A stretch of 64,000 nt of DNA. Origin: Escherichia coli. Lineage in GTDB: Bacteria; Pseudomonadota; Gammaproteobacteria; Enterobacterales; Enterobacteriaceae. Positions within the stretch are counted from its first letter, which is position 1; every line of letters starts with the position of its first letter. The notes beneath the pieces were generated by a model, which saw nothing but the letters and a program-made list of their open reading frames with translations, was not told where the DNA came from and ran no database searches. The stretch lies in assembly GCF_048403405.1 (NCBI RefSeq), contig NZ_CP183129.1. One strand, 5' to 3'. Shown here piece by piece: positions 59,291 through 64,000 of the stretch. Both the position numbers and the translations under genes were made by a program.

Positions 59291-59509
59291 TTACATCCAC
59301 ATAATTTGCTGTCCTGATGGCAACGGGTGCGGCCTTACGGCGTGGACTTCTCCCGGCTTCACGATGTATCGCTGTACCGACTCATAAGTGATGAACGTGG
59401 CGCTGCAATTCACGTTCTGGCACTGATGATAACGCTCTTTTGTCGTGTCAGTGATATAGCGACTTGTACGCGCATGTGCGGCATGCTGGCATAAAGGACA
59501 ATGAAACAT
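59291..59509 (-). CDS. ogr: P2 Ogr-type zinc-finger late-gene transcription activator
   Basis: 72 aa MFHCPLCQHAAHARTSRYITDTTKERYHQCQNVNCSATF... with a C-X2-C...C-X4-C zinc finger; internal Met of track ORF 59291..59572. Confidence 0.9.
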   Translation of the reverse strand: MFHCPLCQHAAHARTSRYITDTTKERYHQCQNVNCSATFITYESVQRYIVKPGEVHAVRPHPLPSGQQIMWM

Positions 59510-59590
59510 CGCGAGCACCTCTTCCGGTTTTGTTGATGGTGCCATTTTAGTTAATTTATCCTTACAAAACAAACAGATAAAACAAAAACA

Positions 59591-60754
59591 TCACTCATCA
59601 TCTTCTGTTTCGTACTCCACATCAGAAAGCCTGACCTCAAGCTCTAAGGACGTCGTGAAGCCGCTATTATTCAGAAAATGTGTCACCTTAGTGATTGTCC
59701 AGTCCTGCTCGTCTATGACGCGCTTAAAGCCAGACACTTTGACCGGTGTTTCCGTGTAAATATCTGCCCGACCGGTAGCCAGGCTGATGGAGAACTCCGC
59801 AACGCCCCGTTGCAGTTTATCCCACTTCGCCTGAGCGGCGCGCATGGCCTGCGCTTTCGTGGCATATACCGTGGTCAGGGCAAAAACGTTGTCAGCCTCA
59901 CCGGCCATGTATTCACCTTCACGCGCTTCCGGTACTTTAGGCGCTTTCTTCTGCCTGACCGGTTTCGCTTTCGGGTGCTCCAGTGCGCGCAGGTGTTTCT
60001 CTTTCTTTTTGCGTTTCAGTTTTACCTTCTGCTTTTGAGGCTTCGGGTCTTTGGTGTGTAGCCATTTTGCCGTTACACCGGTGTAGGCTCCACGGTCAGC
60101 AATCGCAAAATGATGGCGGTCGCCGTCGCTGCGGGTTATGGTGACCTGCGGGATTTTTTTACCGCTGGCCGTCACTCCCTGCCCCGCTTTGAGAAACAAC
60201 AGTTTTCCCATTTTTACCGACACCTCCCCGCCGTTGCGTTCAGCAAGGCGGGTCAGGAATTTTGCATCAGACTCCTGCGACTGGTCGATGTGCGGGATTT
60301 TAATTCCGGCCAGTGACGGCGCGACACTGGCTTCCAGCCTGTTACGGGAGGCTATCACCTCAACAATCGCACCGAGCGTGGTGTCATGCCAGGAGCCTTC
60401 ACTGCGGGAATTGAGCGTCCCGCGAAAATCTGCACTCCGGGCGCGGATGGTAACCACATCCGGCGCGCCCCGGTGTTCAACCTCATCAACGGTAAATTTC
60501 CCTTTGCATACCAGGGCAAAACCTTTCCAGCCGATATACACCGTCAGGACAGCGCCACGAACCGGCAGCCCGACCTGCCCGTCGGCATCGTTCAGTTCAA
60601 TATCAAGCTGGTCAGCCTCAAAGCCCCGGTTATCCGTCAGGGTCATGCTCATCAGACGGTCGCTGATATTGCCGGTAATATCCCTGCTGTCGAGCATCAG
60701 CATGTAATCCGGCGTCAGCGTACTGCCTGCATCAAATGTCAGCGCATCCAGCAT
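59591..60754 (-). CDS. D: P2 gpD-type tail protein
   Basis: 387 aa; position between U and ogr and length as in P2; lysine-rich central segment. Confidence 0.85.
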   Translation of the reverse strand: MLDALTFDAGSTLTPDYMLMLDSRDITGNISDRLMSMTLTDNRGFEADQLDIELNDADGQVGLPVRGAVLTVYIGWKGFALVCKGKFTVDEVEHRGAPDVVTIRARSADFRGTLNSRSEGSWHDTTLGAIVEVIASRNRLEASVAPSLAGIKIPHIDQSQESDAKFLTRLAERNGGEVSVKMGKLLFLKAGQGVTASGKKIPQVTITRSDGDRHHFAIADRGAYTGVTAKWLHTKDPKPQKQKVKLKRKKKEKHLRALEHPKAKPVRQKKAPKVPEAREGEYMAGEADNVFALTTVYATKAQAMRAAQAKWDKLQRGVAEFSISLATGRADIYTETPVKVSGFKRVIDEQDWTITKVTHFLNNSGFTTSLELEVRLSDVEYETEDDE

Positions 60755-61233: not shown

Positions 61234-61247
61234 TTTTCGTCACCTCC

Positions 61248-63695
61248 TTAACCGTCATGCATCATGCTGGCACGGGCGCGCGCACGTTTATCCCGCTCGT
61301 ATTTTTCGAGCGCATCCTGTAACTGGCGGTCGAGCTGAGTCCCCGGTGCAGTACCGCCCGTCAGACTGATGTGATATTCGTTTTTACTCTGGTCCACATA
61401 AGAGCGGCCAGCCGGTGCCGTAACCGGCTGATAAGCCTGATAGCCTGCATAAGAGCTGGTCGCCGGAATATAACCACCGCTGCCATACGTGGCGGCTTGA
61501 GTTCTGGCGGCGGTCTGGTCAAGTGCGTCAGACTCTTTGTTGATGACCCCGAGCTTTTCCAGTACCCAGTCAATACCGCTGCGCAGTTTGTTGAACGCAT
61601 TAAGCGGCAGCATCAGCGCGTCAGCCAGTGCCTGCCCGAACATGACGCCCGTGTCACGGCAACGATTCAGGGTGTCCTGGGTGGCTTTAACCGGGGCAAT
61701 CAGGTTTTTAAACCACTGCCACGCGGCCTGTAACTTTTCGCCCAGCCAGTCAAACACCGGTTTCAGTGGCGTGAACAGCTCCCCCACCGGCGCAAATGCC
61801 GCTTTCAGCCCTTCAACCACACCGCCAAAGAATGCGCTGACAGGCTCCCAGTATTTACGGATAAGCAACGCCCCGGCGACAATGGCAGCCACCACGGCCA
61901 CAACCGGCCAGCTAATCGCCCCGATGGCCGTCATAATGGCACTACCAACCGTCGTGAAGATTGCACCCATTGCGCCTGCTGCCGCGATGATGGCATTGAT
62001 GCCGGTGATAACCGGCCAGGCTACGAGGCCAATGGCACCGATGACACCAGTCAGCGCCAGTGCACCACCGACAATGATGCCGATGGTTGACGCCAGTGAT
62101 TTGTTTTTCTGTATCCAGCCGTCGAGTTTTAACACATACTTTGTGGCCGTCTGCGTGAGCTTACGCAGCGCGCCTTCCTGCTGGTCAAACAGGTCAGTCC
62201 CCACCGCCTCATAAGCGGACTGAAACTCCTTAAAGTCACCGCCGAGGTTGTCCTGCATGATATTTACCAGCTCCGCGGTCTTCCCGTCTGAGGCTTTAAA
62301 CGCAGCGGTCAGTTTGTCCAGCTTTCCGGTTGAGGCGGCAGTCATCAGCACGGCGGCGGCTGAGCTGGCCTCCTCCCCGAAAATGGTTTTCATGTATTCA
62401 GCCTGCTGGGCAGTACCGAGCCGGTTTTTCTCAAAACTGGCCTGCATTTCTTTCAGAATTGTAAATACTGGTCGGGTGTTTCCCTTGCTATCTGAGGTTT
62501 TCACTCCAAGCTCTTTGAGTGCATCCCATGCTTTTCCCGTCGGTGCCTGCAGGCGACTTAACACGGCACGGCTTCCCGTCCCCGCCATTGAACCGGTAAT
62601 TTTTGCATCATGCAGCGCCCCGACCATTGCGGCGGTTTCTTCAATGCTGACACCGGCATTTTTTGCCACAGGTGCGGCATAGGTCAGCGCATCGCTCATA
62701 CCGTCAAAATCGGCGGCGGTTTTGTTCATCGTCATGGAGAGAACATCCCCGATATGAGCGACCTTATCGTTTGAAAGCTGAAAGGCGGATTTCATCCCCA
62801 TCAGCAGGGCGGCGTTTTCTTCCATCGTGCGACGGTTCGCCAGCGCCATATTCAGCGTGACCGGCGTTGCCGCCTGAATGGCATCAACATCCCCACCGGC
62901 TTTCGCAATAATAATCTGAGCACCGGCTGCATCATCTGCCGAGGCTGCGGTATTGTCGCCGAGCTGGCGCGCCTGCTTGCGGAGCGCGGCCATTTCGGCG
63001 GAGTCTTTTGCCACACCGAGCACGGCCTGCAATTCTGAGTTTTTCTGCGCAAACTCATAACCGGGCATCAGCAACTTAACTCCGGCCATCGTTCCCGCAG
63101 CAGCAATCCCCACACCGGCAGCGCCCACTGAGGCCATATTTCCGGCCAGTTCCTTTCCGGCCTGATAACGCTGTTTGACTGCGTTAAGTTTTGCCTGTTG
63201 CGCACTGACACGCGCCAGCGCGTCACGCTGCCGGTTAAGCTGGGCGGTGGTTTCACTGATACGGTTTTTCAGTCCCTGCTCATCATGTGCAAGATTGCGG
63301 GTATTAATTCCCACAACGGCCAGTTCCCGCTGCTGGCGTTTAACGGAATCCGTCAGGCGGTAATATTTCGCCTGTAAGTCCTCCGCCGCACGCTTCGCGG
63401 ATTCCAGCACTTTCGCCTTAGCACGTGTCGGACGTTCGGTGTTTTTAAACTGTGTTGCAAGGGCTTCGGCCTCCTGCCGTGCCTTTTCAAGTGCATGACC
63501 AGTCACGGCGAGCTGTGCACTGGTCTTGCGAAATCCCTCAATACGGGATGCGTGACCGTTCAGCTCGCGCAGTGATTTTTGTGTTTCCCGGATATCCCCC
63601 GACAGCGATTTGCTCGCTGTGCGGATGGATTTAAACGGGCGGGATGCCTGGTCAACAGCCCTGAGCAATACCTGTAATTTTACATTGTTACTCAT
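61248..63695 (-). CDS. T: P2 gpT-type tail tape measure protein
   Basis: 815 aa; N-terminal coiled-coil-rich region, central Ala/Gly-rich hydrophobic segments; start ATG overlaps the E' stop (ATGAGTAA). Confidence 0.88.
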   Translation of the reverse strand: MSNNVKLQVLLRAVDQASRPFKSIRTASKSLSGDIRETQKSLRELNGHASRIEGFRKTSAQLAVTGHALEKARQEAEALATQFKNTERPTRAKAKVLESAKRAAEDLQAKYYRLTDSVKRQQRELAVVGINTRNLAHDEQGLKNRISETTAQLNRQRDALARVSAQQAKLNAVKQRYQAGKELAGNMASVGAAGVGIAAAGTMAGVKLLMPGYEFAQKNSELQAVLGVAKDSAEMAALRKQARQLGDNTAASADDAAGAQIIIAKAGGDVDAIQAATPVTLNMALANRRTMEENAALLMGMKSAFQLSNDKVAHIGDVLSMTMNKTAADFDGMSDALTYAAPVAKNAGVSIEETAAMVGALHDAKITGSMAGTGSRAVLSRLQAPTGKAWDALKELGVKTSDSKGNTRPVFTILKEMQASFEKNRLGTAQQAEYMKTIFGEEASSAAAVLMTAASTGKLDKLTAAFKASDGKTAELVNIMQDNLGGDFKEFQSAYEAVGTDLFDQQEGALRKLTQTATKYVLKLDGWIQKNKSLASTIGIIVGGALALTGVIGAIGLVAWPVITGINAIIAAAGAMGAIFTTVGSAIMTAIGAISWPVVAVVAAIVAGALLIRKYWEPVSAFFGGVVEGLKAAFAPVGELFTPLKPVFDWLGEKLQAAWQWFKNLIAPVKATQDTLNRCRDTGVMFGQALADALMLPLNAFNKLRSGIDWVLEKLGVINKESDALDQTAARTQAATYGSGGYIPATSSYAGYQAYQPVTAPAGRSYVDQSKNEYHISLTGGTAPGTQLDRQLQDALEKYERDKRARARASMMHDG

Positions 63696-64000
63696 TCGTG
63701 TTTCCGCTTCGCCGGAGCGCCTTTTCGCGCCATGTGATGAGTTCGGTCAGGCTCATGGGATACAGTTCTGATGGCGGCCAGTGAAATATCACTGCCACAT
63801 CCGCCATCAGGTCATCGACCGAGAGATTTTTCGGAAACGTCACTGCACCGAGTTCGGTGACAAAAAACCGACCACCTTACCGGCCAGCGCCACAAGGTCA
63901 GGCAGTTCCAGTGCGGCGACTTCCTGCTCGGTCAGCATCGGTGCCGTCATGCGCGGCAACACCTTAATCAGTGCATCGACTTCGGAGTTTGCGACCGCTG
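63688..64000 (-). CDS. E: P2 gpE / gpE' tail assembly chaperone pair made by a programmed -1 frameshift (5' end outside window)
   Basis: The zero frame reads ...LIKVLPRMTAPMLTEQEVAALELPDLVALAGKVVGFLSPNSVQ* and stops at 63840-63842. After a -1 slip the frame continues ...FFVTELGAVTFPKNLSVDDLMADVAVIFHWPPSELYPMSLTELITWREKALRRSGNTNE* to the stop at 63688-63690. Confidence 0.75.
63861..63867 (-). promoter_or_regulatory. Slippery heptamer TTTTTTG for the E/E' -1 ribosomal frameshift
   Basis: Minus strand GGT TTT TTG, 18 nt upstream of the zero-frame stop; the conserved position of the frameshift between the two tail chaperone frames upstream of the tape measure gene. Confidence 0.7.

Follow-up and report, generated by a model that had tools for sequence, protein, structure and literature searches.

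The right-hand end of the analysed window, a 64,000-nucleotide stretch of Escherichia coli DNA, carries the host pflB–pflA intergenic region, a short attachment-site segment, the ogr gene and the tail genes D, U, T and E/E' (Table 1). The initial annotation had read this arrangement as a P2-type late cassette, and this is borne out. The genes ogr, D, U and T all lie on the minus strand with the claimed lengths of 72, 387, 159 and 815 amino acids, and the order of the late F operon (E, E', T, U, D, followed by ogr and the att site) matches the P2 annotation, as do strand and gene lengths. The length of Ogr is counted from the ATG; a mechanical open reading frame list starts at an upstream TTG and gives 93 amino acids.

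Table 1. Features at the right-hand end of the window (positions in the window).
Feature	Position	Strand	Remarks
Host pflB–pflA intergenic region (bacterial arm of attR)	58973..59165	+	192/193 bases identical to the MG1655 spacer
Orphan mini-ORF MSVIGDIF*	59164..59190	+	First five pflA codons joined to phage DNA; sequence reading and attB/attR comparison
att core GTCAGTTATTGGT, 13 bp, attR copy	59166..59178	.	Crossover region of PhiD145-type site-specific recombination
Phage arm of attR	59179..59256	-	Core-adjacent segment specific to this att class; common to P2 from 59203 onward
Two arm-type Int-binding repeats (predicted)	59230-59237 (TGTGGACG), 59241-59248 (TGTGGTCA)		11 bp apart
Rho-independent terminator, ogr transcript and F operon	59257..59280	-	Terminator scan; identical to the annotated terminator in P2 AF063097
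ogr, 72-aa zinc-finger activator of P2 late promoters	59291..59509	-	72/72 identical to P2 Ogr; phrog_603
ogr promoter (predicted)	59543..59572	-	-10 at 59543-59549, -35 at 59570-59572; AF063097 features transferred through a 97.5% alignment
Gene D, 387-aa essential tail protein (late control D / baseplate hub, VgrG-related)	59591..60754	-	383/387 identical to P2 gpD (99%)
Gene U, 159-aa essential tail protein	60754..61233	-	159/159 identical to P2 gpU; phrog_76
Gene T, 815-aa tail length tape measure protein	61248..63695	-	799/815 identical to P2 gpT (98%)
E' frame and -1 frameshift slippery site	63688..63869	-	E' 63688-63843; GGTTTTTTG 63861-63869; phrog_1756
Gene E, 3' part, tail assembly chaperone	63840..64000	-	161 nt, 53/91 codons

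From ogr through D, U and T to E', the window matches phage P2 (AF063097) with 97.5% DNA identity over 4.8 kb (megablast, E = 0). At least 80% of the query is covered by each of 77 phage records, so that the match lies far beyond chance. The part of the element within the window falls wholly inside a 6.9-kb block with 97.1% identity to P2, and the protein comparison with P2 proposed in the initial annotation gave the identities listed in Table 1. The PHROG and NCBIfam assignments are concordant, naming a tail tape measure, tail proteins and the Ogr equivalog. Ogr scores 177.6 bits against NF007241 (cut-off 116) and carries its cysteines at positions 4, 7, 30 and 35 (Cys-X2-Cys...Cys-X4-Cys), gpD matches phrog_52 (E 1e-185), and gpT matches phrog_28 (E 4e-250) and TIGR01760 (353.7 bits). 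Some genome annotations assign gpD to the VgrG/Pvc8 family of contractile injection system proteins, and its weak VgrG-related match could be taken as a sign of a domesticated contractile-tail device, a tailocin or other contractile injection system, instead of a phage. However, the tail genes directly adjoin ogr, the P2 terminator and the att site in DNA that is 97% identical to P2, and the lineage-mates described below have head, terminase, replication and integrase genes. The capsid, terminase and cos of those genomes effectively refute such a device, the probability of which is negligible.

Gene E is cut by the end of the window, its start lying outside at about 64115. The full gene in strain MS 69-1 (L003 7580-7855) encodes a product identical to P2 gpE at 91/91 residues. 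The frameshift base annotated in P2 maps to 63860, and the slippery T-run GGTTTTTTG is intact. The E' frame and the slippery site together are predicted to give gpE+E', which, when rebuilt from the identical lineage-mate, is identical to that of P2 at 141/142 residues. The genes in the window make up the distal part of the P2 late F operon, with E and E' as tail assembly chaperones (via the predicted -1 frameshift), T as the tape measure, and U and D as essential tail proteins. They are followed by ogr, which encodes the activator of the late promoters, and then by the terminator of ogr and the F operon and by the P arm of the att site. As judged from P2 biology, the late tail genes would be silent in the lysogen and active only once the prophage is derepressed. 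The terminator hairpin (GCCCCTC-GACT-GAGGGGC) is flanked by an A run and, on its opposite side, by a T-rich run, which suggests possible bidirectional termination; it may therefore also stop host transcription coming in from pflB.

The element had previously been taken to start at 59291, but its true boundary is the att core, 125 bp further left. The core GTCAGTTATTGGT is present once in the window and is the sole stretch common to attB (MG1655), attP (phage D8), attL (MS 69-1) and attR (window). Recombination of attB with attP into attL and attR can be reconstructed base for base, the flanks recombining as expected. The tRNA scan of the window gave no tRNA genes, and the site is therefore not of the tRNA type. 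In MG1655, the core is located at NC_000913.3 951066-951078, within the first codons of pflA (950340-951080, minus strand), a position that we take to be the published 950293 site after a 777-bp offset between genome versions. Given this presumed offset, the integration site agrees with the one published for phages PhiD145 and PhiD160. The latter is listed as MG1655 950293 in Table 1 of PMC3448106, and this coordinate is the usable published evidence; a literature search on pflA and the integration of P2-like prophages found nothing else relevant. The P2-shared part of the phage arm of attR aligns with the stretch annotated in P2 as the IHF site and the Int P arm, and the consensus given for the arm repeats is tgTGGaCa (PMC3448106). 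From P2 biology, we infer that Int and IHF bind at this arm.

The window covers just 4.8 kb of the element, and its completeness is taken from lineage-mates, not from the source genome. The last 7,740 bases of the window are 100% identical to E. coli MS 69-1, and the first 25 kb are approximately 100% identical to the same strain, with a 2-base length difference, so that the window probably comes from an assembly other than that of MS 69-1. In MS 69-1, 4621 and GN02461, the prophage is complete, with a size of 35,623-35,624 bp and the arrangement pflB|ogr...int|pflA. Genes FI and FII come next after E, every structural, lysis, replication and control gene of P2 is annotated, and the head, terminase and lysis genes, A, B, C, cox, int and cos are all present in these three genomes, which serve as a proxy for the window. 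The initial annotation had placed the integrase, the immunity region and the variable cargo beyond the window, and this also holds, as the element continues in the three strains and closes with C, int and then pflA.

It had also allowed for the lack of further P2-like genes past the window, which would leave an isolated tail-gene remnant without a functional phage. Such fragments exist in E. coli, the ogrK/D fragment of K-12 being an example of a cryptic P2 remnant, and the window shows no more than the final 4.8 kb of the element. Nevertheless, the genes in the window are all intact and 98-100% identical to P2, and all three genomes with the 100% identical junction bear the complete 35.6-kb prophage, which refutes the remnant by proxy. 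Moreover, among 5,426 complete E. coli genomes, the pflB–ogr junction was found in 402 and the int–pflA junction in 404. These nearly equal counts imply that truncated elements are rare at the site, and a remnant is very improbable. Approximately 7% of the complete genomes (402-404/5,426) thus carry a P2-like prophage at this position. The occupant of the site can vary even within the lineage, since TUM14771, another lineage-mate, has a different P2-like variant there. Taken together, positions 59166-64000 almost certainly represent the ogr-side end, attR, of a complete P2-type (Peduovirus) prophage with a tyrosine integrase of the PhiD145 class and a 13-bp core overlapping the pflA start codon.

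The cargo of the element had been regarded as unassessable. It does lie outside the window, but it can be read from the identical lineage-mates, where it consists of a putative retron Ec48 (type IV), PDC-S39, a Lit-like protease and a 368-aa nuclease-domain protein, all known or candidate defence genes. The two P2 cargo slots that the initial annotation had singled out for non-P2 genes, Z/fun and tin/old, both hold them in a lineage-mate, namely the Lit-like and nuclease-domain genes at Z/fun and PDC-S39 at tin/old, and the retron is located between cosL and Q. Type IV retrons combine a reverse transcriptase with an adjacent two-transmembrane effector and an upstream msr-msd non-coding RNA. 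The two genes of MS 69-1 match RT_IV (E 9e-177) and 2TM_IV (E 4e-85). At gathering thresholds, an Rfam scan of the entire prophage with its retron region returned no RNA families, and an inverted-repeat search upstream of the reverse transcriptase gene yielded candidates only.

A prophage with such cargo could look complete and yet be defective, giving no phage output and being kept for its defence genes. P2-type prophages are not SOS-inducible, in line with this view, and the retron effector gene of strain 4621 is split into two CDS by either mutational decay or a sequencing error. By contrast, neither MS 69-1 nor GN02461 has an essential gene annotated as a pseudogene, cos is present, the att sites are perfect, and viable particles of nearly identical phages have been isolated. 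The isolated phages D8, 11W, 12W, P24E6b, P24A7b, S164 and vB_YpM_46 have the same attP and an integrase that is at least 99% identical. A cryptic prophage is, on balance, unlikely, and by analogy with P2 biology the complete prophage is probably viable.

Integration at this site has a consequence for pflA, which encodes the pyruvate formate-lyase activating enzyme (PflA). The native ribosome-binding site (GGAG; Shine–Dalgarno duplex energy -6.4 kcal/mol) and the ATG at 59164-59166 are cut off from the remainder of the gene, and integration leaves the mini-ORF behind as a by-product. Since the start codon and the att core overlap, lysogens would have to make PflA from an ATG supplied by the phage, with a 20-codon leader (MSNLTNCNTTENTATAGATK-) and a weak ribosome-binding site. 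In the lysogen, 35.6 kb separate the gene from its native promoter, and transcription would most likely come from the prophage repressor promoter Pc through C and int. A promoter-like site inside the 3' end of int (L003 38401-38428) was given no weight, as the region is poorer in such sites than shuffled sequence. The phage-encoded leader is invariant in every sampled phage and lysogen; a search of the phage collection for diverged integrase relatives found none between 61% and 99% identity. It is conceivable, though rather doubtful, that this phage-supplied head wires anaerobic PFL activation to P2-type lysogeny in some 7% of E. coli, with PflA falling when Cox shuts Pc. The fusion may already have been described in the PhiD145 papers.

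The element is real but already known: it is an ordinary P2-type prophage, seen here by its tail-gene end, and its insertion site has been described before. Prophages of this type and the conservation of their tail end are documented, as are the PhiD145-type site and the defence hotspots, and several RefSeq genomes carry an annotation of precisely this element, so that its value as a discovery is small. The practical value is one of bookkeeping: the complete and probably viable prophage in which the window ends now has a boundary placed to the base, and its defence cargo sits just beyond the window. If true, the phage re-heading of pflA could matter for the anaerobic physiology of lysogens.

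Among known systems, P2 itself (AF063097 / NC_001895) shares the E-E'-T-U-D-ogr order, the orientation, the protein lengths, the frameshift site, the ogr terminator and the P-arm repeats. In the proxy genome, 74% of the prophage aligns to P2 at 96-97%, corresponding to a coverage × identity of approximately 0.71-0.72. For Peduovirus, the genus level lies roughly at or above 70% genome-wide coverage × identity and the species level at 95%; on this proxy, the value would fit the genus and a species other than P2. The integration and control proteins differ from those of P2 (Int 174/341, or 51%; C repressor 49/103; Cox 28/116 identical), which implies a heteroimmune phage with a different att core. 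Furthermore, the assembly gene G and the tail fibre gene H, the latter in its C-terminal part, diverge from P2, whose own Z/fun and tin/old genes are replaced in the lineage-mate prophage and supplemented by the retron.

Other relatives are D8, 12W, 11W, P24E6b, P24A7b, S164, vB_YpM_46 and prophage pro147, with which the attP is 97-100% identical over 214 bp, including a 27-codon ORF spanning the core. The tail end of these Peduovirus phages is 97% identical, and the pro147 integrase is 100% identical, whereas the control proteins of D8 differ (C 78/103, Cox 69/123 identical). The PhiD145/PhiD160 integration class of P2-like coliphages, the site of which is said to have been detailed by Karlsson et al. 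in 2006 and Mandali et al. in 2010, has the same chromosomal site and P2-type arm repeats. The class label used here is set by this integration site, the integrase having been compared with those of the phages sharing the attP and of P2 (for the class, see Nilsson & Haggard-Ljungquist 2011, PMC3448106). A further likeness concerns the working mode alone. Elements integrating into dusA likewise supply a replacement 5' end. The dusA-specific integrases (Farrugia et al. 2015, PMC4482086) nevertheless belong to an unrelated integrase family and use another target gene, so that the resemblance is not one of membership.

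The tail cassette read from the sequence, a P2-type ogr-D-U-T-E/E' end in minus-strand orientation, is confirmed, the interpretation as a P2-type prophage is supported, and the element is already known. Window positions 1–58972 run from uup to pflB and are unremarkable core chromosome of E. coli, and a tRNA scan of the window found no tRNA genes. The ORF list for 54000–64000 gives the host genes ycaO, focA and pflB (56690–58972) on the plus strand, followed by a gap of 318 bp and then the minus-strand phage block, where GC content increases from about 0.47 to about 0.56. A stretch of low GC (0.36–0.39) at 55250–55999, upstream of focA, is the focA-pfl upstream region and has an ordinary look; in the mechanical ORF list, focA reaches across it and is 398 aa long.

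When 58973–64000 was searched by megablast against 50,697 phage records, 107 of them matched, and in 77 cases the match extended over 80% or more of the query. The alignment to phage P2 begins at query base 231, continues to the end of the query and has 97.5% identity. Compared with the P2 reference proteins, Ogr (72/72) and gpU (159/159) are identical, while gpD (383/387) and gpT (799/815) are nearly so, and the PHROG and NCBIfam assignments are concordant with these identities. The −1 frameshift site known from P2, GGTTTTTTG, is preserved intact (63861–63869), and the window end interrupts gene E, leaving 53 of its 91 codons inside (63840–64000). The cassette is confirmed because ORF coordinates, P2 identity, family assignments and the frameshift site agree, and gene order, orientation and lengths hold in every particular.

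Features of the prophage end in the window and of the complete prophage in E. coli MS 69-1 (NZ_CP146675.1)
Feature	Sequence	Position	Strand	Details
ogr	window	59291-59509	minus	72 aa from ATG; mechanical ORF 93 aa from upstream TTG
D	window	59591-60754	minus	387 aa
U	window	60754-61233	minus	159 aa
T	window	61248-63695	minus	815 aa
E' frame	window	63688-63843	minus	51-aa ORF
Arm-type repeat TGTGGACG	window	59230-59237	minus	fits P2-type consensus
Arm-type repeat TGTGGTCA	window	59241-59248	minus	fits P2-type consensus
ogr/F-operon terminator hairpin	window	59257-59280		right of core
368-aa nuclease-domain protein gene	MS 69-1 locus	10094-11200	+	Z/fun slot
Lit-like Peptidase_U49 gene	MS 69-1 locus	11724-12725	-	Z/fun slot
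Genes flanking cos (retron, PDC-S39)	MS 69-1 locus	28146-30034 and 30546-32384
Phage-headed pflA	MS 69-1 locus	38470-39267		265-aa product; phage ATG start

The phages D8, 12W, P24E6b and vB_YpM_46 match about 40 bp further to the left than P2 in the megablast search, which points to a non-P2 att site. From 59164, the plus strand reads ATGTCAGTTATTGGTG, the start of pflA (MSVIG). Four sequences were compared: the window junction, the empty site of MG1655, attP of the free phage D8, and the far junction taken from a lysogen. The window junction consists of attB-left, GTCAGTTATTGGT and attP-right, and the far junction of attP-left, the same 13 bp and attB-right. As all flanking bases are thereby accounted for, the core is located at 59166–59178. 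It corresponds to 951066–951078 of NC_000913.3, within the first codons of pflA (950340–951080, minus strand). This att site is the known PhiD145-class integration site, since MG1655 position 950293 falls inside the core once the 777-bp offset between the two versions of the MG1655 sequence is applied. Position 950293 is the integration site given for PhiD145 and PhiD160 (Nilsson & Haggard-Ljungquist 2011, PMC3448106, Table 1).

To the right of the core, the sequence aligns with the annotated IHF site and Int P arm of P2, and the P2-type arm-repeat consensus is tgTGGaCa (quoted in PMC3448106). The phage arm is shared with P2 from 59203 onward, whereas the segment beside the core is specific to this att class. 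The same E. coli pflA-type attP, with an integrase 99.7% identical, is also found in the phages vB_YpM_46 (MT374857), VB-YPM-4 (ON146439) and vB_YpM_115 (OR545056), which are propagated on Yersinia pestis. They echo a published remark on phage L-413C, which reportedly resembles phages of E. coli.

Insertion of the prophage splits pflA at its start codon, and lysogens have AAG in place of the ATG. Followed upstream, the pflA frame continues in phage DNA as far as an ATG at a distance of 20 codons, which closely follows an in-frame TGA; the lysogen PflA has 265 aa and starts MSNLTNCNTTENTATAGATK-SVIGR. PGAP annotates this product as pflA, and NF008356 matches residues 21–265. In the free phage, the leader ORF is a 27-codon frame spanning the core, and the leader does not vary among the four phages and two lysogens compared. 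Shine-Dalgarno pairing at the leader is weak (−2.1 kcal/mol versus −6.4 kcal/mol for native pflA). The native upstream region, with RBS and ATG, remains in the window beside an orphan ORF (MSVIGDIF and a stop; 59164–59190). C and int read towards pflA, and a search for plus-strand terminators between these three genes was negative; lysogens may thus use the phage promoter Pc to transcribe pflA. The PhiD145 papers may already report this arrangement.

The last 7,740 bases of the window are identical to MS 69-1, and its first 25 kb share about 100% identity with six genomes from a single lineage. In the lineage-mates MS 69-1, 4621 and GN02461, a prophage of 35,623–35,624 bp lies between two core copies. 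It carries FI, FII, G, H, I, J, W, V, orf30, S, R, lysis genes, X, L, M, N, O, P, Q, A, B, cox, C and int, so that every P2 gene class is present. The initial annotation's view that the rest of a P2-type prophage lies beyond 64000 is thus supported by proxy, and the full gene set argues, likewise by proxy, against an isolated tail-gene remnant. Among 5,426 complete E. coli genomes, 402 have the pflB-ogr junction and 404 the int-pflA junction (at least 80% of the junction probe covered); a P2-like prophage is therefore present here in about 7% of strains, almost always with both ends. In TUM14771 (NZ_CP128875.1 24000–34000), which shares this chromosomal lineage (about 100% identical across window 1–25000), the pflB/pflA site is occupied by another P2-like variant, whose sheath, E, T, U and D proteins have different accessions. 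Within a single host lineage, the prophage at this att site has therefore either been replaced or undergone recombination.

The variable cargo had been expected outside the window, and PADLOC models applied to the lineage-mate prophage found four items there; none looks like a new kind. The predicted type IV retron (RT_IV, E 9e-177; 2TM_IV, E 4e-85) is named retron Ec48 family by PGAP. Rfam found no msr-msd RNA in the prophage; upstream of the RT gene there is an inverted repeat of 12 nt without mismatches (MS 69-1 locus 30058–30069/30143–30154). The Ec48 effector is one 235-aa protein in MS 69-1 and GN02461. In strain 4621, whose prophage is 1 bp longer, it is annotated as two CDS (4621 locus 28146–28854); the cause is a frameshift mutation or else an error of assembly. 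The second item, PDC-S39, is a candidate defence protein of 612 aa (DUF7380). The P2 cos sequence GGCGAGGCGGGGAAAGCAC (MS 69-1 locus ~30366–30384) lies between its gene and the retron, which places the retron, on the virion genome, in the short interval between cosL and Q, and PDC-S39 in the tin/old slot. Of the two genes in the Z/fun slot, one codes for a Lit-family protease with further matches to Peptidase_U49 and, below its cut-off, to NF007238; the other encodes a 368-aa protein whose N-terminus resembles CBASS/SduA/PDC-M68A nucleases and whose C-terminus weakly resembles a sheath-initiator/gp25-like domain. The orf30-slot gene, a match to phrog_2407, is part of a P2-homologous block. According to a preprint on the defence hotspots of P2 and P4, the main one lies between gpA and the portal gene, and another within the tail genes.

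Established P2 biology, combined with the sequence identity and anatomy found here, suggests how this end would work, with binding and activity as predictions. The genes inside the window make up the distal half of the F late operon plus ogr. E and E+E' are tail assembly chaperones, and U and D are essential tail proteins; T would set tail length, and Ogr would activate the four late promoters. In a lysogen, these late genes would be silent, and the arm and core beside ogr would serve as the attR substrate for Int/Cox/IHF excision.

In local BLAST against the whole P2 genome, 74% of the lineage-mate prophage aligns at 96–97% identity. It differs from P2 in int-C-cox, in a 4.5-kb non-P2 block between A and Q, and in the Z/fun slot, where a non-P2 block measures 3.0 kb; P2 gives no match to the 3' part of H, and the H-G junction and G align at only 86%. 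Int is 51% identical to that of P2, C 49/103 and Cox 28/116, so the phage is heteroimmune to P2 and differs from it in integration specificity. Isolated phages with the same attP have an Int at least 99% identical to that of the lineage-mate prophage.
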